NCBI GenBank assembly: GCA_030697165.1
Contig: JAUYQQ010000023.1
Span: 286,681 to 350,680, forward strand
Length of the DNA: 64,000 bases
Reading direction: 5' to 3'
Source: Acidobacteriota bacterium
GTDB lineage: Bacteria; Acidobacteriota; Vicinamibacteria; Vicinamibacterales; UBA2999
Position numbers and translations under genes: made by a program. The notes under the pieces are model-generated. The model did not search any database. It saw only the letters and a list, made by a program, of their open reading frames with translations, and was not told the origin of the DNA. Shown here piece by piece: positions 1 to 20,113 of the stretch; within the stretch, counting starts at the first letter, position 1; every line of letters starts with the position of its first letter.

Positions 1-650
1 CCCCACGTCTGATTGCTGCCAGAGGCATAGCGCAACGACTTGAACGGGAAGGCCATCTCGATGGTCCAGCCGCCGTCGAAGCGGCCGGTCTTCGCCAGCC
101 ACACCGGGTTCCAGTCGGTATTGGGCGACCCTTCATCCACCACCGAGTAATCAGCGAAGCCGCCGATCGGGTTGGCGTAGAACATGTAGCCGCTGCGGCG
201 ATCGTAGAAGGTATCGAAGCCGACCCCGAAATGATCGTTGTTGCGCATCTGGTTGGTGTCGCGCCGCAGCTCGTTGGCAATCCACCGCTCGGGCGGGGCC
301 TGGTCCCAGACCCTCGCCGACACGTAGATGTGGTCCTCGTCGAACGAGACCCAAATCTCGGTCTTCTCGGTCGATGGTTCGCGGTAACGAGGCGCGGCCT
401 GCACCATGCCATCGAAGCCGGGATAGGTCGTGTAGATCGACTCATCGAGCTGGCCATCGAGCTTGAACGGCTCGACCAGTTTGATCGCACGAATCGTCGA
501 CTTGCCGGTGGCCTCGTCGCGGGCCATGCCGTTGGGCGATTCAGGCGCGGCCGGTCCGTCCACCACCTGGGTGGCCGGGGCCGGCGGCTGCTGAGCAAGA
601 GCGAGTGGGGTCGAAAGGAAAAAGACTGCGGACGCTAACAGGAGACGCAC
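1..650 (-). CDS. Secreted CBM9-like / DUF5916-family protein, N-terminal part (gene runs off the left window edge)
   Basis: Not in the ORF track because it is open at the edge. Hand translation of the minus strand from GTG 650-648 gives VRLLLASAVFFLSTPLALAQQ (signal peptide), then IRAIKLVEPFKLDGQLDESIYT, EIWVSFDEDHIYVSARVWD, NDHFGVGFDTFYDRRSGYMFYANPIGG and GGWTIEMAFPFKSLRY. I associate this pattern with carbohydrate-binding-family-9-like DUF5916 proteins. The GTG start is inferred from the signal peptide and from the same 16-nt overlap geometry seen at the other ankyrin-gene stops. Confidence 0.55.
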   Translation of the reverse strand, partial: MRLLLASAVFFLSTPLALAQQPPAPATQVVDGPAAPESPNGMARDEATGKSTIRAIKLVEPFKLDGQLDESIYTTYPGFDGMVQAAPRYREPSTEKTEIWVSFDEDHIYVSARVWDQAPPERWIANELRRDTNQMRNNDHFGVGFDTFYDRRSGYMFYANPIGGFADYSVVDEGSPNTDWNPVWLAKTGRFDGGWTIEMAFPFKSLRYASGSNQTW

Positions 651-2335
651 TTATGGTTGTTCTTTGCTCCGAGCTTTTCCAGAAGGGCGATGGTCTCGGG
701 ATAGGGTTGCACGCGCTGTACTGCGCCATTGGCCATGTCGACGGTCGTTCTCCCCTCGCGGTCGACAGCCATGACGTTGGCGCCTTTCGACACCAGATAG
801 AGAATCATCTCGTTGTCGCCCCGGGCGGCCGCGTGATGCAGCGCGGTGTTGCCGTCGTGGTCGGCGGCATTGACGTCGGCGCCCAGTTCCTCGACGAGGT
901 ACTTGACGGCCGCCATCATGCCGGTGGGCGCGAAGCGATGGGAGTTGGCAGCGAAGCCCTCGCCGTAGCCGACGCCGGCCGTGGCATGGAGCGCCGTGAC
1001 CGACGGCCCGCCGATCGCGACCGGCGGCAGTCCCGACAGGTCTTTCACTTCGCGCTCGGCCGCGTCGCCGAAACGGGGGCGGCCGGCCGGCTTGATGGTG
1101 GGCACGTTGGGGTCGGCACCGGCCGCCACCAGCATGCGCATGGCGGCGACGTCGCTGGCATAGGCGGCGCGCCAGAACACGCTGGCGCCAATCTCATCAA
1201 CGCCAGAAAGATCGAAGCTGTAACCCGAGTACCACACCTTCATCTTCAGGCGCGCGTTGACGTCGGCGCCCCGGTCGATCAGGTTCTTCATCAAGTCGAG
1301 GTAGCCGAGCTTCTGCTGCATGTGCGCGCGCGGCTGCGGATAGAGCGCCTTGGGCGCCCACTCGACGTTCAGGGCCGCGTAGAGCGGGGTGACACCGTTG
1401 ACGCTCGCCAGGTTCGGGTTGGCGCCGCGGTCGAGCAGGTCCTGGGCCAGGTCGAAGTGACCGTTGATCACCGCCATCAGCAACGGGGTGGTCTGGTCAC
1501 CGGCCGACGGCAGGTTGACATCGGCGCCGGCGGCCAGCAGGGCCGAGGTTGACTCGGCGTAGCCCTGGCGCACCGCGAACAGCAGCGGCGTGAGGCCGCC
1601 GTGCGCGTTGATCAGTTCGTTCAGCTGGTAGTTGCGATCGACACCCGGCATCGGCGGGCGCGCGCCCGCCGCCGGCGCCCCAGGCCGCGGCGGCGCGCCC
1701 GGCGCCTGCGGATTGCCGCCAAAACCCAGGCCTTCGCGACTCAGGTTGGCAAGGTCCGACACCTTGCTGGTGGCCTTGAGGTCGCCGCCCTTCGCGGCCA
1801 GCACCGTGATGACGTCGGCCCGGTTGGCCGCCGCGGCGTACATCAGCGGCGTCTGCAACCGTACGCCGTCCTTCGCGTTGACGTCGGCGCCGGCGTCCAG
1901 CAGCACTTTCACGGCGTCTACCTTGCCCGACGCGGCGGCCACCATCAGCGGCGAGGTGCCGTTCGGCGTGCCGGCCTTGAGGTCGCTGCCGGCGGTGAGC
2001 AGTGCCTGGATCACCGGCCCGTGGCCCTGCTGGCTGGCCAGGAACAGCGGTGTGTAGGCGCCCAGGCGCGTGGTGGCGCGGACATTCGCGCCGGCAAAGA
2101 CCAGCATCTGCGCCAGCTCGAGGTCGCCGCTCATGGCCGCCCAGTGCAAGGCCGTCATGCCGTCGCCCTGCGCCGCGTTGACGTCGGCGGCGGACTTCAG
2201 CAACGCCTTGACCGCGGCCTTGTCGCCGTTCATGGCGGCGTCGGCGACGGGCGCCGTGGCGGCCGCCGACAACATGGCCGACAGGCCGATGGCCATCACA
2301 CCGGCGACGAATGAGCCGCGAATCACTTTACGCAT
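635..2335 (-). CDS. Secreted ankyrin-repeat protein (cassette 1)
   Basis: ORF 635..2350. Probable start is ATG 2335 (MRKVIRGSFVAGVMAIGLSAMLSAAATAPVADA signal peptide). Repeated GMTALHWAA, TPLxxAA and GADVNA ankyrin signatures sit in two blocks separated by a Pro/Gly-rich linker. C-terminus is KNNHKCVSC. Confidence 0.85.
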   Translation of the reverse strand: MRKVIRGSFVAGVMAIGLSAMLSAAATAPVADAAMNGDKAAVKALLKSAADVNAAQGDGMTALHWAAMSGDLELAQMLVFAGANVRATTRLGAYTPLFLASQQGHGPVIQALLTAGSDLKAGTPNGTSPLMVAAASGKVDAVKVLLDAGADVNAKDGVRLQTPLMYAAAANRADVITVLAAKGGDLKATSKVSDLANLSREGLGFGGNPQAPGAPPRPGAPAAGARPPMPGVDRNYQLNELINAHGGLTPLLFAVRQGYAESTSALLAAGADVNLPSAGDQTTPLLMAVINGHFDLAQDLLDRGANPNLASVNGVTPLYAALNVEWAPKALYPQPRAHMQQKLGYLDLMKNLIDRGADVNARLKMKVWYSGYSFDLSGVDEIGASVFWRAAYASDVAAMRMLVAAGADPNVPTIKPAGRPRFGDAAEREVKDLSGLPPVAIGGPSVTALHATAGVGYGEGFAANSHRFAPTGMMAAVKYLVEELGADVNAADHDGNTALHHAAARGDNEMILYLVSKGANVMAVDREGRTTVDMANGAVQRVQPYPETIALLEKLGAKNNHKCVSC

Positions 2336-2358
2336 ATATGTCCCTGTCACTTACTTTG

Positions 2359-2467
2359 ACCACGAAGGACACGAAGACTAACGAAGGGCACGAAAAACAC
2401 TTTGCTCAACTCTTTGAGAAAGAGGCTTCGTGTCCTTCGCGTTTCCCTTCGTGAACTTCGTGGTTGC
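2359..2467. repeat. CACGAAG-stutter palindromic intergenic element, copy 1
   Basis: Left arm accacgaaggacacgaagactaacgaagggcacgaa; right arm cttcgtgtccttcgcgtttcccttcgtgaacttcgtggt. The arms are reverse complements built from repeated CACGAAG / CTTCGTG units. Confidence 0.8.
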
Positions 2468-2471
2468 CTTC

Positions 2472-3875
2472 CTATTCAGCGGCCGCGGTGGTCGCTGGAA
2501 CGGTGTTCAGGTCATAAGCCGCGGTGCTGTCGCCGAACGACTTGAAGTCGTCCATGCCCAGCAGGTGCGCCACCGACAACATCACGTTGGCCATCGGCGT
2601 GCCGTCGGCCGCCTTCAGGTGCAGGCCGCCCTTGAGCGCGCCGCCGGCGTGGCCGGCCAGGAACAGCGGGCAGCGCTTATGGTTGTGCACGTTCGAGTTG
2701 CCCATCGGCGAGCCGTAGACGATCAGCGTGTTGTCCAGCAGGTTGCTGTCGCCGTCCGGCGTGTCCTTCAGCTTCTTGAGGAAATACGGAATCATGCTGA
2801 TGTGGTACTTGTTGATCTTGGCGAAGTCGGTGATGCGCTCGTCGCGGTCCTGGTGGTGCGAGGCCGAGTGGAACGCCGCCTTGTAGCCGCTGTCGGGATA
2901 GACGCGGTTGGAGGCGTCGCGGCCCATCTTGAACGCGAACACGCGGGTCGTGTCCGACGCAAACGCCAGCGCCTGCAGGTCGAACATCAACTTGACGTGC
3001 TGCTCGAACGAGTCGGGGACCCCCACCGGTGCGCCCGGCAGCTCGCGCTGCTCGCCCTTGCTGTTGGACGCCTCGACCTGCTGGATGCGGCGCTCGATCT
3101 CGCGCACGTCTTCCAGGTAGTCGGCCAGCCGCGCCTGGTCGGCCGCGCCCAGGTTCTTGTTCAGGCGCGCCACCGCGCCACCCAGCCAGTCGAGAATGCT
3201 CTGGTCCTCGCTGCGCCGTTCCTTCCGCTCGGCCGGCGTCGCGCCGACGCCGAACAACAGGTCGAACACGGTGCGCGGATCGCGCACCATCGGCAGCGGC
3301 TGGTCGGGCGCCGCCCAGCTAATCGAATCGGTGTAGGTGCACGAGTAGCCGTAGGAGCATCCGCCGGCCTGGTCGACGTTCTCAATGCACAACTGCATCG
3401 ACGGAATGGCCGTGGTCTGCCCGAAGCGCTGCGCGTAGTACTGATCGAGCGAGGTGCCGACGAACACGTCGGACCCCTGCGTCTGCTTGGGGTGCATCTG
3501 CGTCAGGAACACCGCGCTCGAGCGGAAGTGGTCGCCGCCGATCTCCGGGGCCGTGAACGCCTCGGCATTGCGCACGTCGGTGTTGCTGACGATGGTGAGG
3601 TCGTTGCGGAACGGCTCGAGCGGCGCCAGCGAACTGGGCGACAGGTCGAAGTCGCGGCCGACCGCGGCCGGCGCCCACAGGTTCTGCTTGATGCCAAACG
3701 CCGTGCTGCCGGCAGAGCCGTGCACCATTTCAATCGCCGCCAGGCGGACCTTGCCACGCGCCTGCGCAGAGGTGGCGCGAGCCGGCACCATGGCCTCGAG
3801 GAACGGCAGCGCCATGGTGACGCCAACGCCCTTGAGCGCGGTGCGGCGGGAAATGTGCTTCTGCGTGATGTACAT
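2472..3875 (-). CDS. DUF1552 (HxxSHH) family protein, Tat-exported (cassette 1)
   Basis: 467 aa. MYITQKHISRRTALKGVGVTMALPFLEAM twin-arginine leader, FHSASHH motif, HNHKRCPLFLAG. Typical DUF1552 partner of DUF1592 proteins. Confidence 0.9.
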   Translation of the reverse strand: MYITQKHISRRTALKGVGVTMALPFLEAMVPARATSAQARGKVRLAAIEMVHGSAGSTAFGIKQNLWAPAAVGRDFDLSPSSLAPLEPFRNDLTIVSNTDVRNAEAFTAPEIGGDHFRSSAVFLTQMHPKQTQGSDVFVGTSLDQYYAQRFGQTTAIPSMQLCIENVDQAGGCSYGYSCTYTDSISWAAPDQPLPMVRDPRTVFDLLFGVGATPAERKERRSEDQSILDWLGGAVARLNKNLGAADQARLADYLEDVREIERRIQQVEASNSKGEQRELPGAPVGVPDSFEQHVKLMFDLQALAFASDTTRVFAFKMGRDASNRVYPDSGYKAAFHSASHHQDRDERITDFAKINKYHISMIPYFLKKLKDTPDGDSNLLDNTLIVYGSPMGNSNVHNHKRCPLFLAGHAGGALKGGLHLKAADGTPMANVMLSVAHLLGMDDFKSFGDSTAAYDLNTVPATTAAAE

Positions 3876-3896
3876 CGTCTCTGCTCCTGCTGCCCT

Positions 3897-3921
3897 ATCC
3901 GGCTAAAGCCGGATGCTACAT
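3897..3921. repeat. REP-like hairpin ATCCGGCTAAAGCCGGATGCTACAT, copy 1
   Basis: CCGGC-TAAA-GCCGG stem-loop in the 50-nt gap between the DUF1592 and DUF1552 genes. Near-identical copy at 9556-9580; related copies at 20050-20113. Confidence 0.8.
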
Positions 3922-3925
3922 CTGC

Positions 3926-6448
3926 CTAACGCGCGACGTCGGTCGCGCGGCGTTGCTTGCCCGTATCGGTCATGCCCATCCTGAACGCCGGGCTGTTGAC
4001 CACACCCATCACAAACGCCGACAGCTTGTTGTCGCTCTTGCCGGCGTTACGCACGATTGTGCGAATGGCCGGCATGTCGGTGTACTCAACCCGCCGCCCG
4101 ATCGCATAGGTCATCAGGCTCTCGGTGAATCCCGTCAGGAACACGTCCGAGTGCGTCATCAGCGCCTCGCGCAGGCCGGCCGGGCCGTCAATTTTGGTGC
4201 CGTCGTAGAGGTCGCCCACCACGTCGACCGGCACTTCGTTGTCCTTGATCCGCCAGGCGCCGGTGACGTCAAAGTTCTCGAGCGCGAGGCCGAGCGGATC
4301 GATCACCCTGTGGCACGAGGTGCACGCCGGGTTCTTGCGGTGCTCTTCCATGCGCTCGCGCGTCGACAGCATCTTGCCGCCTTCGTTGGCCTTCACCGAG
4401 TCATCGAGCGACGGCACGTTGGGCGGCGGCGCCGGCGGCGGCGAGGCCAGCAGCACTTCCATCACCCACTTGCCACGGTTCACGGGTGAAGTGCGGTCGG
4501 CGACCGAGGTCAGCGTCAGGATGCTGCCCTGCCCGAGCAGGCCGCGGCGGTTCGGCGGCAGGGCCACGCGCTGAAACGCGCTGCCGGTCACGTTCGCAAT
4601 GCCGTAGTGCTTGGCCAGCCGTTCGTTGACGAAGCTGTAGTCGGCGGTCAGCAGGTCGGTGACCTTGCGGTCCTCGCGCACGATGCTGTCAAAGAACAGC
4701 TCGGTTTCCCGCTTCATCGCCCGGGCGAGCGTGTCGTCGTACTGCGGATACAGCAGGTAGTCGGGGAAAATCTTGTCGAGGTCCTGCAGGCGCAGCCACT
4801 GCGACCCGAACCGCGTCGACAGCGCCTCGGCGCGCTTGTCGGCGAGCATGCGGCGCACCTGCTTCTGCAGGCCGAGCGGCGTGCGCAACGACCCGAGCGA
4901 CGCCGCCTTGACCAGTTCCGCGTCGGGCACCGTGCCCCAGAGGAAGAACGACAGGCGCGAGGCCAGGTCTTCGTCACTGATGCGATACGTGACCACCCCG
5001 GTGGCGGTGCGAATCCCGGCCGGCTGTGCCTCGAGACGGAACAGGAAGCGCGGGCTCATCAGGATCGACTGCACCGCCATGCGGATACCAGGCTCGAAGC
5101 CGCCCTTGGTCCGGCCCTGCTCGTAGAACTTCATGGCGTCCTGCAGGTCGGCCGCCGTCGGCGCGCCGCGAAACGCCTGGGTCGCAAGTTGGTTGACGAT
5201 CTCGGCCGCGCACGACTCCTCTTCGGCGGCGCTGGTCGGCCGGCACGAGAAGATCTTCAGGCGGCTCGGCGTGTCGGACACGCCGGTGACGTCAAGCGGG
5301 CCCTGCACCACGAAATCGCGCAGGTGCGGCAGCATGGTGATGCCAAAGGTGATGCTGACATCGGCCAGCGTGTTCTCGAGCGGCATCAGCAGGTCGTCGA
5401 CCGGGCCGTCCAGGTGCTGAATGAAGGCGGCGGTCACGCGCTGCGGGCCGGCCTTGATGTGCACCGGCGGCGTCTGCAACTCGAGGCTGTTCTTCGGGTC
5501 GGTCTCGCTCATCCGCGTGTTCAGGTCGAACAGCGCGACCCGCTCACCGTTCACCGACACTTCAACCTGTTCCTTGAGGCCGTAGGCGGTCATGGTGTTG
5601 CGGCCCGCCAGTCCGCCGAGCGGTTCGTAGTGCAGCGAGGTCTTGAACACGTAGTGGCCGTCGGCGGGGAACGTGTGCACCACCGAGGTGCCGCCGCGCG
5701 TGCCCATCGGCGCGCCGTCCACGCGGCGCATCTGCGAGGCGGCGCGGGCGATCTTGTAGGTGGTCGAGCTCGCCGAGGCCTGGCGATCGCCCACCGCCAG
5801 CCGGCTGATCTGACTCGCCGCGCGCAGGTAGCCGTCCATCAAGGTCGGCGAAAACGTCTGGGCGTCAGCCACGTTGTCGAACCCGTGGCTGATGGTGTCG
5901 GGCGGCAGGTAGGTCGTCACGTCGACGTCCACGTTCAGCAGGTCCTTGACCGCATTCGCGTACTCGGCGCGGTTCAGCCGCTGAAACGGGCGCGAGCCGG
6001 GATTCGGGTTGAGCGCCGCCACCCGGTCCATGCGGCTCTCGAACGCCGACGCCAGCCCGGTCAGCACCGCCGGCTCGGGGCGGCGCGCCCCCGACGGCGG
6101 CATCATGCCGGCGCGCAGCTTGCGGATCAGCTTCTCGGTGGTCTCGCCGTGCTCTTCGAGCTTGGCGGCATCAAACGACGCCAACGACAGGCCACCGGCC
6201 TTGCCGCGCTCGCTGTGGCACCCGGCGCAGTACTGCTTGACGAGCGCCGTCTGCTCCGCCGGCAGCATGGTGGTGGTGGCCGGAGCATGCGAGACCGCCG
6301 GCTTGACCGGCGCCTTCTCGGCGGGCTTCACCGCTTGCTTGCCCACCGTAGCGCGCGCGTTCTGTTCTCGCGCGTAGGTGGGCGCCGAGACCGCCACACC
6401 AACCAGGGCCGTGATGAACACGGCGCTAACAAAAGTCTTCGTCAGCAT
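3926..6448 (-). CDS. Heme-c DUF1592/DUF1595/DUF1588/DUF1587/DUF1585-type multidomain protein (cassette 1)
   Basis: ORF 3926..6457 (GTG). The more likely start is ATG 6448 (MLTKTFVSAVFITALVGVAVSAPTYA signal). N-terminal QYCAGCHS heme-c motif and LRAGMMPPSG; C-terminal HRKNPACTSCHRVIDPLGLALENFD. Confidence 0.9.
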   Translation of the reverse strand: MLTKTFVSAVFITALVGVAVSAPTYAREQNARATVGKQAVKPAEKAPVKPAVSHAPATTTMLPAEQTALVKQYCAGCHSERGKAGGLSLASFDAAKLEEHGETTEKLIRKLRAGMMPPSGARRPEPAVLTGLASAFESRMDRVAALNPNPGSRPFQRLNRAEYANAVKDLLNVDVDVTTYLPPDTISHGFDNVADAQTFSPTLMDGYLRAASQISRLAVGDRQASASSTTYKIARAASQMRRVDGAPMGTRGGTSVVHTFPADGHYVFKTSLHYEPLGGLAGRNTMTAYGLKEQVEVSVNGERVALFDLNTRMSETDPKNSLELQTPPVHIKAGPQRVTAAFIQHLDGPVDDLLMPLENTLADVSITFGITMLPHLRDFVVQGPLDVTGVSDTPSRLKIFSCRPTSAAEEESCAAEIVNQLATQAFRGAPTAADLQDAMKFYEQGRTKGGFEPGIRMAVQSILMSPRFLFRLEAQPAGIRTATGVVTYRISDEDLASRLSFFLWGTVPDAELVKAASLGSLRTPLGLQKQVRRMLADKRAEALSTRFGSQWLRLQDLDKIFPDYLLYPQYDDTLARAMKRETELFFDSIVREDRKVTDLLTADYSFVNERLAKHYGIANVTGSAFQRVALPPNRRGLLGQGSILTLTSVADRTSPVNRGKWVMEVLLASPPPAPPPNVPSLDDSVKANEGGKMLSTRERMEEHRKNPACTSCHRVIDPLGLALENFDVTGAWRIKDNEVPVDVVGDLYDGTKIDGPAGLREALMTHSDVFLTGFTESLMTYAIGRRVEYTDMPAIRTIVRNAGKSDNKLSAFVMGVVNSPAFRMGMTDTGKQRRATDVAR

Positions 6449-8112: not shown

Positions 8113-8118
8113 GGGGGC

Positions 8119-9525: not shown

Positions 9526-9555
9526 CAGCCTCTCTCCTCCGTTAACGAACGACTT

Positions 9556-9580
9556 ATCCGGCTAAAGCCGGATGCTACAT
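9556..9580. repeat. REP-like hairpin ATCCGGCTAAAGCCGGATGCTACAT, copy 2
   Basis: Same sequence as 3897-3921 and the same position (DUF1592-DUF1552 gap). Confidence 0.8.
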
Positions 9581-9592
9581 TGCCCATGTGGT

Positions 9593-9610
9593 GTCCGCCT
9601 TCAGGCGGAC
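9593..9610. repeat. Second small hairpin GTCCGCC-TTCA-GGCGGAC
   Basis: Perfect 7-bp stem with a TTCA loop. It has the same architecture as GTCCGGC-TTCA-GCCGGAC at 19994-20011. Confidence 0.6.
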
Positions 9611-9615
9611 CGTGC

Positions 9616-12099
9616 CTACCGACCCGCGGCGGTGGTCGTTTCGACCGCCGCGACCCGACCCATCCGGAACGCCGCGCTATTGGCGACTCCGGTAATGAAC
9701 GACGAGAACTTGTAGTTGTTGCGCTTGGCGTCGCGGGCGATGGCGCGCACCGTCGGCATGTCGTACGGCTCGACGCGGCGGCCCAGGGCATAGGTCATCA
9801 GGCTCTCGGTGAAGCTGAGCATGATCACGTCCCGGTGCTTCAGCAGCGCATTGCGCAGCGCGATCGGGCCGTCGAGCTTGGTGCCGTCGAACAGGTCGCC
9901 GGCCGGATCGACCGGCACGCCGTTGTCCTTGATGCGCCAGACGCCGGTGACGTCGAAGTTCTCGAGCGCCAGCCCCAGCGGGTCGATCACCTTGTGGCAC
10001 GACGTGCAGGCCGGGTTCTTGCGGTGTTCTTCCATGCGCTCGCGCACCGACAACGTCTTGCCCGCGTCAACCGACTTGGTCTCTTCGAGCGTCGGCACGT
10101 TGGGCGGCGGCGCCGGCGGCGGCGAGCCGAGCAGCACTTCCATCACCCACTTGCCACGCAGCACCGGCGAGGTGCGGTCGGCGATCGAGGTCAGCAGCAG
10201 CACGCTGCCCTGCCCGAGCACGCCGCGGCGATTGGGATCGGCCAGGGTGACGCGGCGGAACTGCGGACCCAGGATGTTCGGGATGCCGTAGTGCTTGGCC
10301 AGCCGCTCGTTGACGAAGGTGTGGTCGGCGGTCAGCAGGTCGGTCACCGGCCGGTCCTCGCGGATCAGGCTGTCGACGAACAACTCGGTCTCGCGCACCA
10401 GCGCCTGGGACAACGTGGTGTCCCAATAGGAATAGAAGTGATGGTCGGGCCGGACCTTCTCGACGTCCTGCAGCCGCAGCCACTGCGACGCAAACCGCGT
10501 CGACAACGCTTCGGAGCGCGGGTCGGCAAGCATGCGCTTCAGCTGCTTCTCGAACACGGCCGGGGTCTGCAGGGTGCCCTGCATGGCGACCTTCACCAGT
10601 TCCGCGTCGGGCACCGAGCCCCACATGAAGAACGACAGCCGCGACGCCAGGTCGAGGTCGCTGACCCGATATGTCTGGCCGGCCCGCAGCGTCGCCGGCG
10701 CCTGTTCCATGCGGAACAGGAACCGCGGGCTGGCCAGAATAGCCTGCACCGCCATGCGCACGCCCGACTCGAAGTCACCATCCTGGCGGCCGCGCTCGTA
10801 GAACGTCATCAGGCCCTGGAAGTCGTCGGCCTTGACGGGGCCGCGATAGGCCTGGGTCGCCAGCTTGCGGACGATGTCGCCGGCGCAGCGCGTTTCCTCG
10901 GCGGCGGTCGTCGGCCGGCACGAGAAAATCTTGCGGCGGCTCTCGGTATCGGACACGCCGGTCACCGCGACCGGCCCGGCCACCGTGAAGTCGCGCAGGT
11001 GCGGAATGGCGGTGGTCCCGAATACCTCGCCGATGTTGGTGTCGGCCAGGGTGTGCTCGATCGGCATGATCAAGTCGTCGGCCGGCCCCTCGAAGCGCTG
11101 CACGAACGCCGCCGACAGGCGGTGCTGGCCGGCCTTGATGTGGACCTTCGGCGTCTGCATGGTCATGCCGTTGGGGTCCTGCTCGTTCATGCGCGGGTTG
11201 ATGTCCATCAGCGCGACGCGCGCGCCGTTGATCGACACCTCGATCTGCTCCCCGCGGTAGGGGCCACCGAACAGGTCGCCGGTGGGACCCATGTGCAGCA
11301 TGATCTTGAAGTAATACTCGCCGTCGGCCGGAAACACGTGCAGCACCGACAGGCCGCCGCGGGTGCCGAGCGGCGCGCCCTCGACGTGGCGCATCTGCGA
11401 GGCCGTCCGCGGCACCTTCCAGGTGGTCGAACCGGGCGAGGCGTGGCGGTCGCCCACCGCCAGCCGGCTGATCTGGCTGGCCGCGCGCAGGTAGCCCTCC
11501 ATCAGCGTGGAGGAAATCGTCTGCGAGTCGGCGATGTTGTCGAAGCCGTCGCTGATCGTGTCAGCCGGCAGGAAGGCGTTGACGTCAACATCGATCGCCA
11601 GCAGGTCCTTGACCGCGCGCGCATACTCCGCGCGATTCAGGCGCTGCGACGGACGCGACCCGGGATTGGGGTCGAGCGCGGCGGCGCGATCGATGCGGGC
11701 CTCGAAGGCAGTCGCCAGCGCGTTGATGACCTGGGGCTCAGGACGCCGCGAACCAGCCGGCGGCATCATGCCGGCGCGCAGCTTGCGGATGATCTTCTCG
11801 GTCGTCTCGGCGTGCTCGAGCACCTGCGCCGCATCGAAGGCGGCCAGTGACAGGCCGCCGGCCTTGCCGCGCTCACTGTGGCACCCGGCGCAGTACTGCT
11901 TGACGAGCGCGGTCTGCTCAGCCGAGGTCAGGACAGCGGCCGATGGGGAATGCGAAGCGGCCGGCCTCACCACCTGAGGCTGTCCCGCCGTAGCCGCCCG
12001 CGGGCTGGCGGCGGAGGCGGACCGCAAGGGCTGTTGACCGGCCGTCATGACGACCGCGGCGAGGACACCCGCTACTGTTAGACCCGTTCTTTTCATCAT
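9616..12099 (-). CDS. Heme-c DUF1592-type multidomain protein (cassette 2)
   Basis: ORF 9616..12114 (GTG). The likely start is ATG 12099 (MMKRTGLTVAGVLAAVVMTAG), which forms an ATGA overlap with the ankyrin-3 stop. Motifs QYCAGCHS, GMMPPAG and NPACTSCHKVIDPLGLALENFD. Confidence 0.9.
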   Translation of the reverse strand: MMKRTGLTVAGVLAAVVMTAGQQPLRSASAASPRAATAGQPQVVRPAASHSPSAAVLTSAEQTALVKQYCAGCHSERGKAGGLSLAAFDAAQVLEHAETTEKIIRKLRAGMMPPAGSRRPEPQVINALATAFEARIDRAAALDPNPGSRPSQRLNRAEYARAVKDLLAIDVDVNAFLPADTISDGFDNIADSQTISSTLMEGYLRAASQISRLAVGDRHASPGSTTWKVPRTASQMRHVEGAPLGTRGGLSVLHVFPADGEYYFKIMLHMGPTGDLFGGPYRGEQIEVSINGARVALMDINPRMNEQDPNGMTMQTPKVHIKAGQHRLSAAFVQRFEGPADDLIMPIEHTLADTNIGEVFGTTAIPHLRDFTVAGPVAVTGVSDTESRRKIFSCRPTTAAEETRCAGDIVRKLATQAYRGPVKADDFQGLMTFYERGRQDGDFESGVRMAVQAILASPRFLFRMEQAPATLRAGQTYRVSDLDLASRLSFFMWGSVPDAELVKVAMQGTLQTPAVFEKQLKRMLADPRSEALSTRFASQWLRLQDVEKVRPDHHFYSYWDTTLSQALVRETELFVDSLIREDRPVTDLLTADHTFVNERLAKHYGIPNILGPQFRRVTLADPNRRGVLGQGSVLLLTSIADRTSPVLRGKWVMEVLLGSPPPAPPPNVPTLEETKSVDAGKTLSVRERMEEHRKNPACTSCHKVIDPLGLALENFDVTGVWRIKDNGVPVDPAGDLFDGTKLDGPIALRNALLKHRDVIMLSFTESLMTYALGRRVEPYDMPTVRAIARDAKRNNYKFSSFITGVANSAAFRMGRVAAVETTTAAGR

Positions 12100-13883
12100 C
12101 AACACGACACGCACTTGTTGTTGTTCTTGGAGCCGAGCTTCTCGAGCAGCTTCAGCGTTTCGGGATAGGGCTGGGTGCGCTGCACCGGGCCGTTGGCCAT
12201 GTCGGCCACCGTCTGGCCCTCGCGGTTCACCCTGGTAACGTCGGCGCCCTTGCTGACCAGGTAGAGAATCGATTCGTTGTCGCCACGCGCGGCCGCGTGG
12301 TGCAGCGCGGTATTGCCGTCGTGGTCCACCGCGTTGACGTCAGCACCGGCGACTTCGACCATGTACTTGATGCCGGGCAGGAAGCCCGCCGGCGAGTGGA
12401 TGTGCGAGTTGGCGGCGAAGCCTTCGCCGAAGCCGACGCCCGACGCGGCCTGCAGCGGCGGCACGCCGGGACCGCCGAGCGGCACCGGCGGCAGGCCCGA
12501 CACGTCGGCCGCCTGGCGCACTTCGCCGGTGTCGCCGAGCCGTTGCCGGCCGGCGGGACGCATCGTGGGAATGTTCGGGTCGGCGCCGTGCTCCATCAGC
12601 AGCGTCATCGCCGCGACGTCACCGGCAAAGGCGGCACGCCACATCGGCGTGGCGCCGATCTCGTCGACGCCGGCGAGATCGAAGTTGTATTCCGAGTACC
12701 AGACCTTCCGCGTGAGCCGCAGATTCGGATCGGCGCCCTTCTCGAGCAGCGCCTTCATGAACGACAGGTAGGTCGTCTGCTGCTGGTTGTGCGCCCGCGG
12801 CTGGGGATAGAGCGCGCGGGGGGCCCAGGTCACGTTCAGCGCGGCATAGAGCGGCGTCACGCCATTCTCGGCGGCCGCGTTCGGGTTGGCGCCGCGCTCG
12901 AGCAGCCACTGCGCCAGGTCGAACTGGCCGTTGATGGTGGCAATCAGCAGCGGGCTGGTCTTGTCGCCGGCCGACACCTGGTTGACGTCGGCACCGGCCG
13001 CCACGAGCGTCTTGACCGCGTCGGCATAGCCGCCGCGCGCCGCCAGCATCAGCGCGGTCACGCCGCCCTGGGTGCCGATCAACTCGTTATAGAAGAAGGG
13101 CCGGTCGATGCCGGGCCTGCCGCCGCCACCGCGACGACCGCCGCCACCGCCGGCACCTGGGGCCGGGGCCGGGGCATCCGCTGGCGGCGTGGTGCCGGCG
13201 GCCACGACTTGACCGGTGCGGCCCTGGCCGCCACCACCTGGCTGCGCGCCGCTGCCTGAGGCCTGCGCGAGGAACTCCTGTTCCTGGCTGCTGAGGCTCC
13301 CGACGTTGACCACCTTCGACGTCGCCTTGACGTCGGCACCGGCCTTGATCAGCGCCTGGATGGCCTCGACGCGGTTATTGGCGGTGGCAAACATCAGCGG
13401 CGTCTGCCCGAAGGTCTTCTCGCGCGCCTCGATTTCGGCGCCGTTTTCGACCAGCGTGGTGACCGCGGTGGCGTTGCCGGATCCGGCGGCAAGCATCAGC
13501 GCCGTGGTGCCGAGCGCGTTGCCGGCCTTGGCATCGGCGCCGCCGGTGATCAGGGCGGAAATCACGGCCGCGTGCCCGTGCTCGGCGGCCAGCAGCAGCG
13601 GCGTGTAGCCGCCCAGCCGCGTCGTGGCCTTGACGTTGGCGCCGGCGAACAGGAGCATCTGCGTCATCGCCGCATCGCCGTGTCGCGACGCCCAGTGCAG
13701 CGCGGTCATGCCGTCGCCCTGGGCCGCGTTCACGTCGGCGCCGCTCTTGATCAGCGTGCGCACGGCCTCGGTGTCGCGCTTCATCGCCGCATCGGCCACC
13801 GGCGCGGCCGCGGCGCCGAGCATCACCGACAGCGATAGCGCGAGGACAGCGACGAGCCCGAGACCCTGAATCACTTTGCGCAT
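12099..13883 (-). CDS. Secreted ankyrin-repeat protein (cassette 3, with Gly-rich insertion)
   Basis: ORF 12099..13913. Probable start is ATG 13883 (MRKVIQGLGLVAVLALSLSVMLGAAAAPVADA). Ankyrin signatures present. C-terminus KNNNKCVSC. The central linker is expanded to a QPGGGGQ...GAGGGGGRRGGGGRPG stretch. Confidence 0.85.
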   Translation of the reverse strand: MRKVIQGLGLVAVLALSLSVMLGAAAAPVADAAMKRDTEAVRTLIKSGADVNAAQGDGMTALHWASRHGDAAMTQMLLFAGANVKATTRLGGYTPLLLAAEHGHAAVISALITGGADAKAGNALGTTALMLAAGSGNATAVTTLVENGAEIEAREKTFGQTPLMFATANNRVEAIQALIKAGADVKATSKVVNVGSLSSQEQEFLAQASGSGAQPGGGGQGRTGQVVAAGTTPPADAPAPAPGAGGGGGRRGGGGRPGIDRPFFYNELIGTQGGVTALMLAARGGYADAVKTLVAAGADVNQVSAGDKTSPLLIATINGQFDLAQWLLERGANPNAAAENGVTPLYAALNVTWAPRALYPQPRAHNQQQTTYLSFMKALLEKGADPNLRLTRKVWYSEYNFDLAGVDEIGATPMWRAAFAGDVAAMTLLMEHGADPNIPTMRPAGRQRLGDTGEVRQAADVSGLPPVPLGGPGVPPLQAASGVGFGEGFAANSHIHSPAGFLPGIKYMVEVAGADVNAVDHDGNTALHHAAARGDNESILYLVSKGADVTRVNREGQTVADMANGPVQRTQPYPETLKLLEKLGSKNNNKCVSC

Positions 13884-13907
13884 ATGCGTAACCCTGTCAC
13901 TTGCCTT

Positions 13908-14007
13908 CACCACGAAGAGCCCGAAGACTACGAAGAACGCGAAGCCAAGTTTTCCAGAAGGACTCTTCGTGTCCTTCGAGATGGCCTTCGTGTCCTTCGT
14001 GGTTGCC
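13908..14007. repeat. CACGAAG-stutter palindromic intergenic element, copy 2
   Basis: caccacgaagagcccgaagactacgaagaacgcgaag ... cttcgtgtccttcgagatggccttcgtgtccttcgtggttgcc. Same position (ankyrin-DUF1552 gap) and same flanks (ccctgtcactt..., ...cttcgtggttgcctt) as copy 1. Confidence 0.8.
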
Positions 14008-14008
14008 T

Positions 14009-15421
14009 TTACTCCGCCGACGCGGTGGTCACCGGCACGGTGTTCAAGTCGAACCGGCCGGTGCTGTCGCCGAAGCTCTGCACGTCGGTCAGGCCGATGT
14101 CCTGCATCAGGGCCAGCATCGCGTTGGCCATGGGCGTGCCGTCGGCGGCCTTCAGGTGCAGGTTGCCGCGCAGCGCGCCGCCCCCCTTGCCGGCCAGGAA
14201 CAGCGGGCAGCGCTTGTGGTTGTGCACGTTCGAGTTGCCCATCGGCGACCCGTAGATCACGACCGTGTTGTCGAGCAGGTTCTTGTCGCCGTCCGGGGTG
14301 TTCTTCAGCTTGTTCAGGAAGTACGGAATCATGCTCACGTGATACCGGTTGATCTTGTTGAAATCGGTCACGCGGTCTTCGCGCTCGCCGTGGTGCGACG
14401 CGGGGTGGAACGCGGAGCGGACGCCGCTGTCGGGATAGACCCGCGCCGAGCCGTCGCGGCCCATCTTGAACGAGAACACGCGGGTCACGTCGGTGGCAAA
14501 CGCCAGCACCTGCAAGTCGAGCATCAGCTTGACGTGCTCCTCGAACGAATCGGGCACGCCGATCGGCGCCTCCGGCAGTTCGCGGACTTCGCCGGACGCG
14601 TTGTGCGCCTCGACGCGCTGGATGCGGCGCTCGACTTCACGCACTTCCTCGAGGAAGGCGCCCAGGCGGGCGCGGTCGCTGGTGCCCAGCTGCTTCTGCA
14701 ACCGCGCCACCTCTTCGCTCACCCAGTCGAGAATGCTCTTGTCGGTGCGACGAATGGCGGCGCGCTCGGCCGGCGTCGCGCCGACGCCGAACAACGAATC
14801 GAACGCCGCGCGCGGGTCGCGGATCATCGGCAGCGGGGTGTGCGGATCCGACCAGCTGATGGTGTCGGTGTAGGCGCAGCTGTAACCGTAGGCGCAGCCG
14901 CCCGACTGATCGACCGTCTCGATGCTCAACTGCATCGACGGGATGGCCGTCTCCTGGCCGAACTTGTGCGCGTAGAGCTGGTCGAGCGACGTGCCGGCCC
15001 GCACGTCGGAGCCCTGCGTCTTCTTGGGGTGCGACTGGGTCAGGAACACCGCGCTCGAGCGGAAGTGGTCGGCGCCGATCTCCTGCAGCGAAAACGCCTC
15101 GGCGTTGCGGACGTCGGTGTTGCTGACAATCGTCAGGTAGTCGCGGAACGGCTCGAGCGGCGACAGCGCGCTCGGGCTCAGGTCGAACGCGGTGCCGACC
15201 GCCGCCGGCGACCACATGTTCTTGGCGGCGCCGAAGACGGTCGCGCCGGCCGAGCCATGGACCATTTCAATGGCTGACAGCCGCACCTTGCCGGTGACCG
15301 CGGTCTTGGCGAGCAGCGTCTGGGCCGGCATCATTGCGTCGAGCAACGGCAGGGCCACGGTCACGCCAAGGCCGCGCAGAACGGTGCGGCGGGAGATGTG
15401 CTTCTTCGTGATAAATTCCAT
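14009..15421 (-). CDS. DUF1552 (HxxSHH) family protein, Tat-exported (cassette 3)
   Basis: 470 aa. MEFITKKHISRRTVLRGLGVTVALPLLDAM, FHPASHH, HNHKRCPLFLAG. Confidence 0.9.
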   Translation of the reverse strand: MEFITKKHISRRTVLRGLGVTVALPLLDAMMPAQTLLAKTAVTGKVRLSAIEMVHGSAGATVFGAAKNMWSPAAVGTAFDLSPSALSPLEPFRDYLTIVSNTDVRNAEAFSLQEIGADHFRSSAVFLTQSHPKKTQGSDVRAGTSLDQLYAHKFGQETAIPSMQLSIETVDQSGGCAYGYSCAYTDTISWSDPHTPLPMIRDPRAAFDSLFGVGATPAERAAIRRTDKSILDWVSEEVARLQKQLGTSDRARLGAFLEEVREVERRIQRVEAHNASGEVRELPEAPIGVPDSFEEHVKLMLDLQVLAFATDVTRVFSFKMGRDGSARVYPDSGVRSAFHPASHHGEREDRVTDFNKINRYHVSMIPYFLNKLKNTPDGDKNLLDNTVVIYGSPMGNSNVHNHKRCPLFLAGKGGGALRGNLHLKAADGTPMANAMLALMQDIGLTDVQSFGDSTGRFDLNTVPVTTASAE

Positions 15422-15426
15422 GGTTT

Positions 15427-17940
15427 CTATCTCTCCACTGTCGTCGTTTCGACTACGTCAGCCTTGCTCATCTGGAACGCCTGGCTCGTCACGATGCCCA
15501 TGACGAACGCCGAAAACTTGTGATTCTGTTTCGCGGCCTCGCGTGTGATCCGGCGAATCGCCGGCATGTCGAAATACTCGACCCGCCGGCCGAGGCTGTA
15601 GGTCAGCAGCCGCTCGGTGAAGCTCAGCACGAACATGTCCTGGTGCTTCAGCAGCGCCGTGCGCAGGCCCGCGGGCCCGGTCATCTTGGTGCCGTCGTAG
15701 AGGTCGCCAATCGGGTCGACCGGGGCGCCGTTGTCGCGAATGCGCCACCGGCCGGTGACGTCGAAGTTCTCGAGCGCCAGGCCGATCGGGTCGATCACCT
15801 TGTGGCACGAGGTGCACGCCGGGTTGGCGCGATGCTGCTCCATCCGCTGGCGGGTCGTCAGCTGGACGCCGGCATCTTCGCCCTTGGTTTCCTCGAGCAG
15901 CGGCACGTTGGGCGGCGGCGCCGGTGGCGGCGAGGCCAGCAGCACTTCCATCACCCACTTGCCGCGCAGCACCGGCGAAGTGCGATCGGCGACCGAGGTC
16001 AGCGCGAGAATGCTGCCGTGGCCGAGCAGCCCGCGGCGGTTCTCGTCGGCCAGCGTGACGCGGCGGAAGTCGGGGCCGTTCACGTTCGGGAGGCCGTAGT
16101 GCTTGGCGACGCGCTCGTTGACGAACGTGTAATCGGCCGTCAGCAGTTCGGTGATCGGGCGATCGTCGCGGACGATGCTGTCGAAGAACAGTTCGGTTTC
16201 GCGCTTGAGCGCCTGCGCCAGCCCGAAGTCGTAATACGGAAACAACAGCGCGTCGGGATTGAGCTTGTCGAGGTCCTGCAGCCGGAACCACTGCGACGCA
16301 AAGCGGGTGGACAGTGCCTCGGCCTTCGGGTCGGCCAGCATGCGCTTGACCTGCGCGGCGAGCACGCCCGGCGCGCGCAGCGTACCGTTGCCCGCCACCT
16401 TCAGTAACTGCGCGTCGGGGCCCATGCCCCACAGGAAGAACGACAGGCGCGTCGCCAGGTCGCGATCGGTCAGGCGGTAGTTCTGGCCCGGCCGCACCGT
16501 GGCCGGCGCTTCCTCGAGCCGAAACAGGAACTTCGGGCTGGCGAGCATCGCCTGCACCGCGAGCCGGATGCCCGACTCGAAGTCCCCCTCACTGCGCCCC
16601 TGCTGGTAGAACTTCTGCAGGCCGTCGTAGTCGGCGGCGGTCAGCGGCGCCCGGTACGCCTGGGTCGCGAGCGTACGGATAATCTGCGACGCGCACGCGG
16701 CCTCTTCGGCGGCGGCGGTCGGACGGCAGGTGAAGATCTTGCGGCGGCTCGGGGTGTCGGACACGCCGGTCACCTTGAACGGACCACCGACCGCGAACTC
16801 GCGCAGGTGCGGCAGCGTCGTGATCCCGAAGCCCGAGCCGATCTGGCTGTCGGCCAGCGTGTGCTCGATCGGCGGCATCAGGTCGTCGGGCACCGCGTCG
16901 AAGCGCTGCACGAACGCGGCCGCCAGTTGATGCGTCCCCGCCTTGATGTGGACCCTCGGCGTCGTCAGGTTCATCCCGTTGGGGTCCGACTCGCTCATGC
17001 GCGGGTTGATCTCGACCGCGGCGACGCGCTCGCCGTCAATCGACACCTCGAGGATCTCGCCCCGCACGGTGCTGCCAAACAGCTGCCCGGTCGGGATTGA
17101 ATGCAACTGCATGCGGAAGCTGTACTCGCCGTCGGCGGGGAACGTGTGCATGACGGCGATGCCGCCGCGCGTGCCGAACGGCGCGCCCTCGACGTGCCCC
17201 ATCTGCGAGCCGGTGCGCGGCACCTTGAAGGTGACCTCGGCGGCGCCGGTCTTGGGGTCGCCGACCGCGAGCGCGCTGATGCGGCTGGCGGCGCGCAGGT
17301 AGCCTTCCATCAAGGTCGCCGAGAAGCTCTGCGAGTCGGCGACGTTGTCGAAGCCGGCGCTGATCTGGTCGGGCGGCAGGAACGCGCTGACGTCGACGTC
17401 CAGGTCGAACATGCCGCGCACCGCGCGCGCATACTCCGCGCGGTTCAGGCGCTGGAACGGACGGCGGCCGGGATTGGGGCTGAGCGCGGCCGCCTGGTCG
17501 AGTCGCGTCTCCATCGAGGTGGCGAAGGCCGTCAGCACGGTGGCGTCGGGACGCCGCGAACCCGAGGGCGGCATCATCCCCGCGCGCAGCTTGCGGATGA
17601 TCTTCTCCGCGGTCTCCGCGACGTCAACGTCGTGGCCGACCTTCGACGCATCGAAGCCCTGCAGCGACAATCCCGCCGCGTTGTTCTTGTTGCGATCGTT
17701 ATGACAGCTGGCGCAGTACTGCTTGACGAGCGCGTTCTGCCCGCCCTCGCTCGCTGACTGATTCGCGAGCTTCGGCGAGGCCGGCTCGTGGCTCACCGCG
17801 ACCGCTGGCTCCGCCGGGGCAGCCTGTCTCGCCGTAGCGCGCGAAGCGAGCCCGGGCGCGGAGGCGGGCTGCTCCGCGTACACGCGGAATCCAAGCGCCG
17901 CGACCAACCCGAAACCGACCACCAACGAGAGTTTTTTCAT
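15427..17940 (-). CDS. Heme-c DUF1592-type multidomain protein (cassette 3, first gene of the array)
   Basis: 837 aa. Signal MKKLSLVVGFGLVAALGFRVYAEQ. Motifs QYCASCHND, GMMPPSG and NPACTSCHKVIDPIGLALENFD. Confidence 0.9.
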   Translation of the reverse strand: MKKLSLVVGFGLVAALGFRVYAEQPASAPGLASRATARQAAPAEPAVAVSHEPASPKLANQSASEGGQNALVKQYCASCHNDRNKNNAAGLSLQGFDASKVGHDVDVAETAEKIIRKLRAGMMPPSGSRRPDATVLTAFATSMETRLDQAAALSPNPGRRPFQRLNRAEYARAVRGMFDLDVDVSAFLPPDQISAGFDNVADSQSFSATLMEGYLRAASRISALAVGDPKTGAAEVTFKVPRTGSQMGHVEGAPFGTRGGIAVMHTFPADGEYSFRMQLHSIPTGQLFGSTVRGEILEVSIDGERVAAVEINPRMSESDPNGMNLTTPRVHIKAGTHQLAAAFVQRFDAVPDDLMPPIEHTLADSQIGSGFGITTLPHLREFAVGGPFKVTGVSDTPSRRKIFTCRPTAAAEEAACASQIIRTLATQAYRAPLTAADYDGLQKFYQQGRSEGDFESGIRLAVQAMLASPKFLFRLEEAPATVRPGQNYRLTDRDLATRLSFFLWGMGPDAQLLKVAGNGTLRAPGVLAAQVKRMLADPKAEALSTRFASQWFRLQDLDKLNPDALLFPYYDFGLAQALKRETELFFDSIVRDDRPITELLTADYTFVNERVAKHYGLPNVNGPDFRRVTLADENRRGLLGHGSILALTSVADRTSPVLRGKWVMEVLLASPPPAPPPNVPLLEETKGEDAGVQLTTRQRMEQHRANPACTSCHKVIDPIGLALENFDVTGRWRIRDNGAPVDPIGDLYDGTKMTGPAGLRTALLKHQDMFVLSFTERLLTYSLGRRVEYFDMPAIRRITREAAKQNHKFSAFVMGIVTSQAFQMSKADVVETTTVER

Positions 17941-18145
17941 GCTCGCCTTGTCCCCGGCTGTCGAGGACGGTTTTCAACAGGGCCGTTCTAACACTAAGAA
18001 GTCGAATTTTCAACGACTTAGAGGGATTTTGTGTCACGGCTTGTCACTGGCATGATAGTCTCCGTCGGCGGTCCGTGGACGGGCCGGAATCATGTTTTTG
18101 GGCCTGTTTTCTGGCCACATCCGCTGAACGCAGGGAGATCACACC

Positions 18146-20049: not shown

Positions 20050-20113
20050 CTGCACTCCGGCTAAAGCCGGAGGCTACCCTAGCGCTGCACTCCGGCTAAA
20101 AGCCGGAGGCTAC
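20050..20113. repeat. Two tandem REP-like copies CTGCACTCCGGCTAAA(A)GCCGGAGGCTAC
   Basis: Copies at 20050-20077 and 20085-20113 share the CCGGCTAAAGCCGG core with 3897 and 9556. The second copy overlaps the stop codon (20110-20112) of the convergent minus-strand gene. Confidence 0.8.

Follow-up and report, generated by a model that had tools for sequence, protein, structure and literature searches.

Genes and proteins of the array

The 64-kb stretch of DNA analysed here (the window, from contig JAUYQQ010000023.1), which comes from a soil or freshwater member of the Acidobacteriota (Vicinamibacterales), carries nine successive minus-strand open reading frames (ORFs) at 635-17940 which, according to the ORF list and Pfam, give the same gene order three times: a DUF1592-type dihaem cytochrome c, a DUF1552 protein and an ankyrin-repeat protein. 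The three-gene unit recurs in almost all relatives examined, and comparison with them suggests that the ankyrin protein is a genuine and apparently undescribed third partner of the widespread DUF1592/DUF1552 pair. A first-pass annotation, made from the sequence alone, had proposed the nine genes and their threefold order; both were borne out at the coordinates listed below, and its DUF1592-type, DUF1552 and ankyrin calls were upheld by hidden Markov model (HMM) searches with Pfam. The third-position GC content of the nine ORFs, 0.88-0.93, is consistent with genuine genes. Transcription runs from cassette 3 to cassette 2 and then to cassette 1, and proteins are numbered by cassette in the following. 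The 64-kb window contains no further cassette copies.

15427..17940, minus strand: cassette 3 gene 1, first gene of the array; DUF1592-type dihaem cytochrome c, 837 aa, Sec-type signal (Pfam, two CxxCH)
14009..15421, minus strand: cassette 3 gene 2; DUF1552/HXXSHH protein, 470 aa, twin-arginine signal (Pfam E 1e-85), 5 nt 3' of gene 1
12099..13883, minus strand: cassette 3 gene 3; exported ankyrin-repeat protein, C-terminus NNNKCVSC; probable start ATG 13883, the ORF reaches 13913
9616..12099, minus strand: cassette 2 gene 1; DUF1592-type dihaem cytochrome c, 827 aa from ATG 12099 (Pfam); the ORF reaches 12114
8119..9525, minus strand: cassette 2 gene 2; DUF1552/HXXSHH protein, 468 aa, twin-arginine signal (Pfam)
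6442..8112, minus strand: cassette 2 gene 3; exported ankyrin-repeat protein, 556 aa, C-terminus NNHKCITC, 6-9 nt past the DUF1552-2 stop
3926..6448, minus strand: cassette 1 gene 1; DUF1592-type dihaem cytochrome c, start ATG 6448 (Pfam)
2472..3875, minus strand: cassette 1 gene 2; DUF1552/HXXSHH protein, 467 aa, twin-arginine signal (Pfam E 7e-85)
635..2335, minus strand: cassette 1 gene 3; exported ankyrin-repeat protein, C-terminus NNHKCVSC; probable start ATG 2335, the ORF reaches 2350

In all three cytochromes, Pfam recognized the domains Cytochrome_CBB3/PSCyt1, PSD3 (DUF1587), PSD5 (DUF1595), PSD4 (DUF1592), PSCyt3 (DUF1588) and PSD2 (DUF1585), in this order. The PSD4 match reached E 1e-43 to 3e-46 (149-158 bits against a cut-off of 23.3), and the five PSD/PSCyt3 domains all scored above the gathering score. 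DUF1501, DUF1549 and DUF1553 gave no Pfam match in the cassette proteins, and NCBIfam returned no model for the cytochrome or DUF1552 proteins. Exactly two CxxCH motifs were present in 76 of 77 DUF1592-type proteins from genomes and in 49 of 50 from metagenomes. For these motifs (C75/C78/H79 and C703/C706/H707) and for an MMPP motif, conservation is 97% or more. We therefore predict two c-type haems, one in the N-terminal PSCyt1-like domain and one in the C-terminal PSCyt3 domain. A further conserved cysteine pair lies at C399/C410 in the numbering of the 832-aa ORF, corresponding to C394/C405 when counted from ATG 12099.

The three DUF1552 proteins, of about 468 aa, matched HXXSHH/DUF1552 (PF07586) with E ~1e-85 and 284-288 bits against a cut-off of 30, and a PF07586 match was found in all 23 members of the DUF1552 alignment (A3). 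The H..SHH signature was present in 85 of 87 sequences, with H337, S340, H341 and H342 each conserved to at least 97%. Invariant residues comprise E50, H53, D116-H117, H294, D300, D309 and D321 as well as the clusters H337-xx-S340-H341-H342 and N396-x-H398-N399-H400; a cysteine pair, C174/C180, is conserved too. The invariant E50, H53, T95/S98/T100 and D321, together with the histidine clusters, are candidate metal or nucleophile residues.

The ankyrin-repeat proteins, 556-604 aa long, were identified with E 1e-57 to 1e-63 (Ank 187-206 bits, Ank_2 176-201 bits in Pfam). They consist of two ankyrin-repeat (ANK) blocks joined by a variable low-complexity linker, which is 33% identical between paralogues, and end in NNH(K/R)CxxC, with a nearly invariant HxCxxC. 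The terminal cysteine pair is at least 97% conserved in 95 genome-derived sequences, and in metagenomes all 57 complete ankyrin ORFs carry CxxC within the final 12 residues, 51 of them at the exact end. Of the divergent members, at 44-48% identity, most retain the motif, sometimes followed by a few extra residues. For ankyrin-2, 8000 homologues were scored, and the best among the matches listed were 80-95% identical. A representative search with the C-terminal half of the protein gave 150,843 matches at E <=1e-3, but these were dominated by giant generic ANK proteins, so that no size of the ankyrin family can be derived from it.

All nine proteins had been assigned export signals in the first-pass annotation, and a heuristic reading of the N-termini agrees with it: Sec-type for the cytochrome and ankyrin proteins, which share hydrophobic N-termini with a mean Kyte-Doolittle hydropathy of 2.1-2.7, and twin-arginine translocation (Tat) for DUF1552. 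The latter has SRRT(A/V)L(K/R)G, with an h-region of lower hydrophobicity than that of the Sec proteins, and R10 and R11 are invariant across the family. With the Pfam TAT_signal model, weak matches that stay under the gathering score were obtained for 17 of the 23 DUF1552 members (best E 4e-4).

AlphaFold2 (AF2) models were calculated for DUF1552-2 and DUF1592-2 from shallow alignments in which all homologues are at least 77% identical. Both were poor, with a mean predicted local distance difference test score (pLDDT) of 58 in each case and predicted template-modelling scores (pTM) of 0.63 for DUF1552-2 and 0.45 for DUF1592-2, so that the fold matches obtained with them are suggestive only. 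In a Foldseek search of the PDB, all 50 matches listed for the DUF1552 model belong to the alkaline-phosphatase superfamily (LtaS, sulfatases, YejM/PbgA); the best E is 3e-3, with a probability of 0.97, and the template-modelling (TM) scores are 0.2-0.38. At the level of Pfam, no sulfatase, DUF1501 or metalloenzyme link was found for DUF1552 at E up to 10. A formylglycine sulfatase was rejected, as there is no Sulfatase match at E <=10 and no CxPxR among the invariant residues.

In DUF1592-2, a beta-sandwich at about residues 225-380 matched carbohydrate-binding modules (CBM) of the CBM6/CBM35 type (Foldseek probability 1.0, E ~2e-3, TM score to the target 0.5-0.6). With 60% identity among paralogues this sandwich is the most diverged domain of the cytochrome, and it is 95% identical among orthologues, a modest hint at cassette-specific ligand binding. 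In a study on Verrucomicrobia, PSCyt genes sometimes come with CBM_6 and adjoin an unknown family (PMC5615132), and a multi-omics study of a lignocellulose-degrading community tables a Cellvibrio CBM2-DUF1592 protein among its CAZy-annotated proteins (PMC6004670). One database entry, P0136 (808 aa, on a 471-kb ENA contig), carries PSD4/PSCyt3/PSD2 and DUF1552 in a single chain with 87% identity to DUF1552-2; the neighbours may be naturally fused in it, or the entry is an artefact of a frameshift or gene call.

Linkage of the ankyrin gene to the cytochrome/DUF1552 pair

The association of the three genes was followed from two sides. In an ankyrin-centred scan with one genome per GTDB species and the alignment of the three paralogues as query, at least 545 relatives were found and 78 loci analysed. 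The six-frame ORFs of these loci were searched with HMMs built from the three trios of the window, and an ankyrin gene was counted as testable with at least 4.2 kb of upstream sequence. A DUF1592-type gene followed by a DUF1552 gene lay directly upstream, on the same strand, for 68 of the 69 testable ankyrin genes. The second scan, of metagenomes, was DUF1552-centred; its query alignment was headed by the member that diverges most (51% identity to the window proteins), and 80 loci at 49-66% identity to this lead member were obtained. Here, an ankyrin gene followed DUF1552 in 57 of 59 testable cases, and the cytochrome gene preceded DUF1552 in all 43 testable loci, as it does in the three cassettes of the window. 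Both tests cover the DUF1552 clade sharing the scan motifs.

The constancy of the ankyrin partner was among the points on which the first-pass annotation had beforehand staked its proposal, and co-conservation was found in both directions. Judged by gene neighbourhood, the constant ankyrin partner can be regarded as established for one DUF1552 clade, in Acidobacteriota and Gemmatimonadota, and not for the pairs of Planctomycetota and Verrucomicrobiota. By the labels of the metagenome-assembled genomes (MAGs), the trio occurs mostly in Vicinamibacterales and other Acidobacteriota. It is also present in Gemmatimonadota, namely on the complete chromosome of a Ca. Palauibacter (L077) and in a Gemmatimonadaceae member (L068). 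The linkage was seen in soil, freshwater and marine metagenomes, and the intergenic distances across loci are short, with medians of 23-36 nt to the start of the HMM envelope. Eight of the loci (L014, L019, L042, L047, L056, L066, L003, L031) hold trio copies that are 56-80% identical; the MAG labels Bifidobacteriaceae, cyanobacterium and Acidimicrobiia attached to these carriers are probably wrong and were not used.

Clustering of the ORFs flanking the 78 loci revealed no broadly conserved fourth gene. The best candidates are lineage-local: a DUF5916 gene in 11 loci and CarboxypepD_reg/TonB-type barrels in 9 + 4 loci.

This linkage makes it highly improbable that the ankyrin genes are unrelated passengers, such as secreted 'eukaryote-like' effectors in which C-V-S-C mimics a CaaX box as in Legionella AnkB. 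The tail does formally fit C-a-a-X, Ca. Palauibacter is a sponge-associated genus, and the top NCBIfam matches of the ankyrin proteins are Legionella Dot/Icm Ank effectors. These matches, however, are generic ANK-repeat hits of about 110-120 bits, far under cut-offs of 450-1400. Moreover, a passenger would explain neither linkage over two phyla with constant order, strand and short gaps, nor Sec signals in place of type IV signals, nor the co-divergence of whole cassettes. Ankyrin genes in MAGs of Acidobacteriota and Gemmatimonadota are commonly counted as 'eukaryote-like' markers of host interaction (PMC8163846 and related sponge-microbiome papers); we would suggest that the trio ankyrins of free-living soil and water bacteria should not be counted among them.

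History, junctions and surroundings of the array

The trios, described in the first-pass annotation as alignable along their length by eye, gave computed pairwise protein identities of 62-63% for ankyrin, 72-76% for DUF1552 and 63-66% for the DUF1592-type proteins. In close relatives, all three proteins of a cassette have their best match in one and the same window cassette (111, 222 or 333). In L002, L003, L005, L006 and L036, a type 2 cassette is again succeeded by type 1, and in L028 and L039 type 3 comes after the same molybdenum (Mo) enzyme gene as in the window and before another cytochrome gene. Counterparts in the loci of relatives are 74-94% identical, against 60-76% between paralogues. 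Since the cassette-specific counterparts stand in the same array order, the triplication must be old. The ratios of nonsynonymous to synonymous substitution rates (dN/dS) of 0.07-0.28 for all three components point to purifying selection. Taken together, these comparisons indicate that the module is duplicated as a whole unit, that this took place twice and before these species diverged, and that every copy is maintained.

Tandem repeats in metagenome assemblies may be collapsed or inflated, which is why a recent segmental duplication or an assembly artefact had to be considered. We give this explanation practically no weight: the cassettes are just 71-79% identical in DNA, their cassette-matched counterparts occur in the same order in the seven independent assemblies named above, and all copies are under purifying selection. 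By DNA divergence, counterparts and dN/dS alike it is refuted.

Within the array, stop/start overlaps are confined to the three junctions that lead from an ankyrin gene to the next gene. The first-pass annotation had correctly placed ATGCTGA at 6442-6448, a 7-nt overlap of the ankyrin-2 stop with the cytochrome-1 start (read 6448-6442), and GTG 650, the start of a tenth gene, inside the ankyrin-1 tail, where the overlap amounts to 16 nt. In place of the ATGA that it had read at 12097-12101, the sequence is TGATG (12101-12097), a 1-nt overlap of the ankyrin-3 stop and the cytochrome-2 start. The database copy of DUF1592-2 (P0241) begins at ATG 12099, which favours this overlap over an upstream GTG. 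Of the remaining junctions, two have gaps of 5-9 nt, DUF1552-2 and ankyrin-2 being 6 nt apart in the same reading frame, and four have gaps of 50-136 nt holding hairpins. The earlier description as a translationally coupled array thus fits about half of the junctions. The features in these gaps and at the two ends of the array are as follows.

13905..14006, minus strand: hairpin of the CACGAAG type, like repetitive extragenic palindromic (REP) elements, in the DUF1552-3/ankyrin-3 gap (inverted repeat I24; RNA fold -45.1 kcal/mol, z -4.3)
9530..9615, minus strand: two small GC-rich hairpins, GTCCGCCTGAAGGCGGAC and ATCCGGCTTTAGCCGGAT, in a 90-nt gap (-31.9 kcal/mol, z -2.5)
3880..3925, minus strand: small hairpin ATCCGGCTTTAGCCGGAT in a 50-nt gap (-16.8 kcal/mol, z -2.8); same type at the same junction in L002
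2355..2468, minus strand: REP-like hairpin of the CACGAAG type in the DUF1552-1/ankyrin-1 gap (inverted repeats I13 and I19; RNA fold -52.9 kcal/mol, z -6.0)
3..650, minus strand: 5' part of a tenth co-directional gene of the DUF5916 family, with signal peptide; start GTG 650, leaves the window
17941..18145, no strand assigned: divergent intergenic region of 205 nt, presumed promoter region, between the array and the gene of a sulfite-oxidase-family Mo enzyme

The two large CACGAAG-type hairpins have no U tract, and CACGAAG/CTTCGTG clusters occur at many further sites of the window. This element was present in no cassette junction gap of the 78 related loci, and the CCGGCT-type hairpin was common only to the closest relative among them, at the identical junction. 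The sequence CCGGCTAAAGCCGG was found at 3899 and 9558, as well as at 20057 beyond the array. Stable imperfect palindromes, multicopy and absent from the orthologous junctions of relatives, the array hairpins have the properties of REP-like elements, and on this comparison they are best described as lineage-specific insertions into intergenic gaps, outside the conserved unit. The 'mosaic' of hairpins among the cassettes, from which separate histories had been read, is real in its distribution but trivial, as it shows only that they arrived after the duplications.

A scan of the array and the 205-nt upstream region detected no sigma-70-like promoter or consensus. Terminator-like sites in the array are fewer than in shuffled sequences, and no Rfam family was found in it. 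A single operon is plausible.

The tenth gene gave tblastn matches in 11 loci, and its full-length orthologue at L003:11674-14040 is a DUF5916 match; the gene, found in 11 of 78 related loci, is conserved in close relatives only. A plus-strand gene for a sulfite-oxidase-family molybdoenzyme (18146-19390; Oxidored_molyb and Mo-co_dimer) is situated upstream of the array in divergent orientation and is followed by a minus-strand gene (20110-21540) for a cytochrome c domain protein with a weak Cu2_monoox_C match. Synteny of these Mo enzyme and cytochrome/Cu-monooxygenase-like genes with the type-3 cassette is limited to the closest relatives (L028 and L039), and both genes are therefore probably outside the system.

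Further along the window, a large imperfect inverted repeat of tandem heptamers, with (AGTAGCC)n facing (GGCTACT)-like units, was observed at 23137-23276. Its arms are up to 59 nt long and 85% complementary, and it sits between the convergent genes 21605-23149 (plus strand, HupE/UreJ_2) and 23272-24447 (minus strand, NHL repeat); it is a REP-like element distinct from the hairpins of the array. On the plus strand, one ORF at 33591-34904 has matches to two components of the tripartite tricarboxylate transporter, the receptor TctC and TctB. It is an apparent TctC-TctB fusion and is followed by TctA at 34971-36464. A tRNA-Arg(TCG) at 37103-37179 precedes a prophage-like region from about 37400 to at least 57613, which contains an ArdC-N/M78 anti-restriction-like gene (37402-38211), an endonuclease, an endolysin (41705-42301), a tape measure protein (46795-50670), a major head protein (53550-54548), a head protease (54978-56063) and a portal protein (56060-57613). 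Its gene content suggests a prophage of the siphovirus type that has inserted at the tRNA.

A proposed cooperating trio and its comparison with known systems

The favoured reading, to which we give a probability of roughly 0.55, is that the trio constitutes a conserved operon module whose three exported proteins cooperate in the periplasm or envelope. In the mechanism we propose, the Sec-exported dihaem cytochrome would bind a carbohydrate-like or polymeric substrate and transfer electrons, and the Tat-exported DUF1552 protein, with an alkaline-phosphatase/sulfatase-like core, would be the metal-dependent catalytic subunit. The Sec-exported ankyrin solenoid would dock as cognate partner on the proteins of its own cassette, its HxCxxC tail serving as a thiol/disulfide or metal site. 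The three cassettes would be kept as distinct isoforms, probably differing in specificity. Within this scheme, the physical complex, the catalysis by DUF1552, the substrate class, the role of the CxxC tail and the single transcript are what we infer. The first-pass proposal of a haem-dependent periplasmic machine of three components, with substrates particular to each paralogue, is supported in part, and strongly as regards co-conservation.

Several observations weigh against such cooperation. Gene linkage and co-divergence are equally expected from simple co-inheritance. Six distinct ankyrin-less DUF1592/DUF1552 pairs occur inside arrays (L017, L020/L055, L023, L024, L041, L043); they fall into three or more small groups with an internal identity of 84-91%, and the next pair in the array has an ankyrin gene. 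The sole exception in the ankyrin-centred scan is an orphan ankyrin gene without the upstream pair (L065:9896-11542, JAUSDY010000009.1), although the same MAG also has a full two-cassette array on another contig (L036). P0399, a divergent member of the ankyrin family, is devoid of the cysteines. Given the ankyrin-less pairs, the orphan and P0399, there is no strict requirement for the ankyrin protein in cis. In two of the three cassettes, hairpins of high stability stand between DUF1552 and ankyrin and could uncouple their expression. On the structural side, both AF2 models are poor and the fold matches weak, none having E < 1e-3, and the jelly-roll sandwich of the cytochrome also matches tumour necrosis factor (TNF) and haemagglutinin. 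Neither protein has a sequence-level relative in the PDB: single-sequence searches with the cytochrome and with DUF1552, and a search with the 23-member DUF1552 profile, gave only chance matches of the coiled-coil or uracil-DNA-glycosylase (UDG)-like kind.

The ankyrin-less pairs share their arrays with another ankyrin gene, as if it were serving in trans, and this would suit an ankyrin protein that is a dedicated maturation or cofactor-delivery factor and not a subunit. Its HxCxxC tail would then bind haem or a metal, or reduce or isomerize the cysteine pairs of its partners (C174/C180 in DUF1552, C399/C410 in the cytochrome). Models for such a role are AnkB, encoded beside KatB in Pseudomonas aeruginosa, and Cj1386, encoded beside KatA. 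The ANK gene likewise stands in the same unit, downstream of a haem protein gene, and a conserved Cys/His tail is typical of ligand sites. Cj1386 of Campylobacter jejuni is reported to traffic haem (cited in PMC11442138). We nevertheless find this role doubtful, if conceivable. Attachment of c-type haem is the task of the Ccm/Ccs machinery and calls for no trafficking protein, and a general chaperone would not require three co-diverging paralogues, each kept with its own cassette across species. Beyond generic ANK repeats there is probably no homology to AnkB or Cj1386.

One-to-one, cassette-specific co-divergence is also what cognate binder/enzyme pairs would show, and the ankyrin protein might accordingly be an inhibitor or self-protection partner that holds an envelope enzyme inactive until substrate is present. 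Bd3460 of Bdellovibrio, an ankyrin-type immunity protein that blocks the organism's own DD-endopeptidases, sets a precedent, and the last position of the ankyrin gene in the unit, sometimes behind a strong hairpin, would permit separate dosage. But nothing points to DUF1552 attacking its own envelope, the ankyrin-less pairs are maintained, other genomes having orthologues of theirs at 84-91% identity, and simple inhibition would leave the invariant terminal HxCxxC unexplained. This makes inhibition improbable.

A stronger form of the cooperating trio, which we regard as rather unlikely, would make the ankyrin protein an indispensable third component of a periplasmic enzyme of a new class. In this enzyme, a CBM-bearing dihaem cytochrome would exchange electrons with a sulfatase-fold metalloenzyme, ankyrin acting as a clamp on the two and its flexible HxCxxC tail as a redox or metal shuttle, by a logic comparable to that of the C-terminal cysteine pairs of mercuric reductase and thioredoxin reductase. 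If true, this would provide a first mechanism for 'planctomycete-specific cytochrome' systems, in the redox-coupled processing of esterified glycans or other polymers.

Few protein families of unknown function are as abundant in Planctomycetota, Verrucomicrobiota and Acidobacteriota as the PSCyt/PSD cytochromes and the DUF1552/DUF1501 proteins encoded next to them. The near-obligate third partner defines a tractable three-protein unit, with the terminal HxCxxC as a genetic handle and three diverged cassettes in one genome as a natural specificity series. That an exported ankyrin protein is so strictly linked to this pair would be unexpected and useful to specialists.

Every listed fold match of the DUF1552 model belongs to the alkaline-phosphatase superfamily, and the likeness may extend to the active site: as with E255/T300 of LtaS, DUF1552 would have a Glu past the first strand and a Thr/Ser about 45 residues on. 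It differs in having neither a sequence relationship nor C/SxPxR, its hallmark being HxxSHH and NxHNH. To our knowledge, no characterized member of the superfamily is paired with a cytochrome, as DUF1552 is.

In the AnkB/KatB and Cj1386/KatA systems, as in the array, the gene of a bacterial ANK protein adjoins that of a haem enzyme, and there the two are linked in function. AnkB is likewise a periplasmic protein, and both AnkB and Cj1386 are much smaller than the ankyrin proteins of the array. Their partner is a b-type haem catalase, whereas here it is a c-type cytochrome together with a sulfatase-like protein; no catalase gene is among the annotated genes flanking the array. We know of no description of a terminal CxxC or of a trio for either of them.

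PSCyt2/PSD1 (DUF1549/DUF1553) and DUF1501, the latter Tat-exported and sulfatase-like, form a parallel pair. From general knowledge it shares the principle of a multidomain c-type cytochrome beside a Tat-exported protein of the alkaline-phosphatase/sulfatase class, and it differs in belonging to other Pfam families. We know of no ankyrin partner for it.

The closest known system is the PSCyt3/PSD and DUF1552 pair of Planctomycetota and Verrucomicrobiota, a neighbourhood noted by He et al. 2017 (PMC5615132); the PSCyt/PSD domains are attributed there and in PMC2754498 to work on Rhodopirellula baltica. The first-pass annotation knew of no description of the trio, and none of the ankyrin partner or the trio was met in the searchable literature on DUF1552/DUF1592, as far as its text was accessible. 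Known pair and array have the same cytochrome domain set and order, an adjoining DUF1552 with a Tat signal and an occasional CBM in common, and both are uncharacterized. What sets the present system apart is that an exported ankyrin protein with terminal HxCxxC follows near-invariably and that arrays of two or three diverged copies are formed. The novelty, apparently, lies in this combination of a known, uncharacterized pair with a near-obligate ankyrin gene ending in HxCxxC, arranged in arrays.

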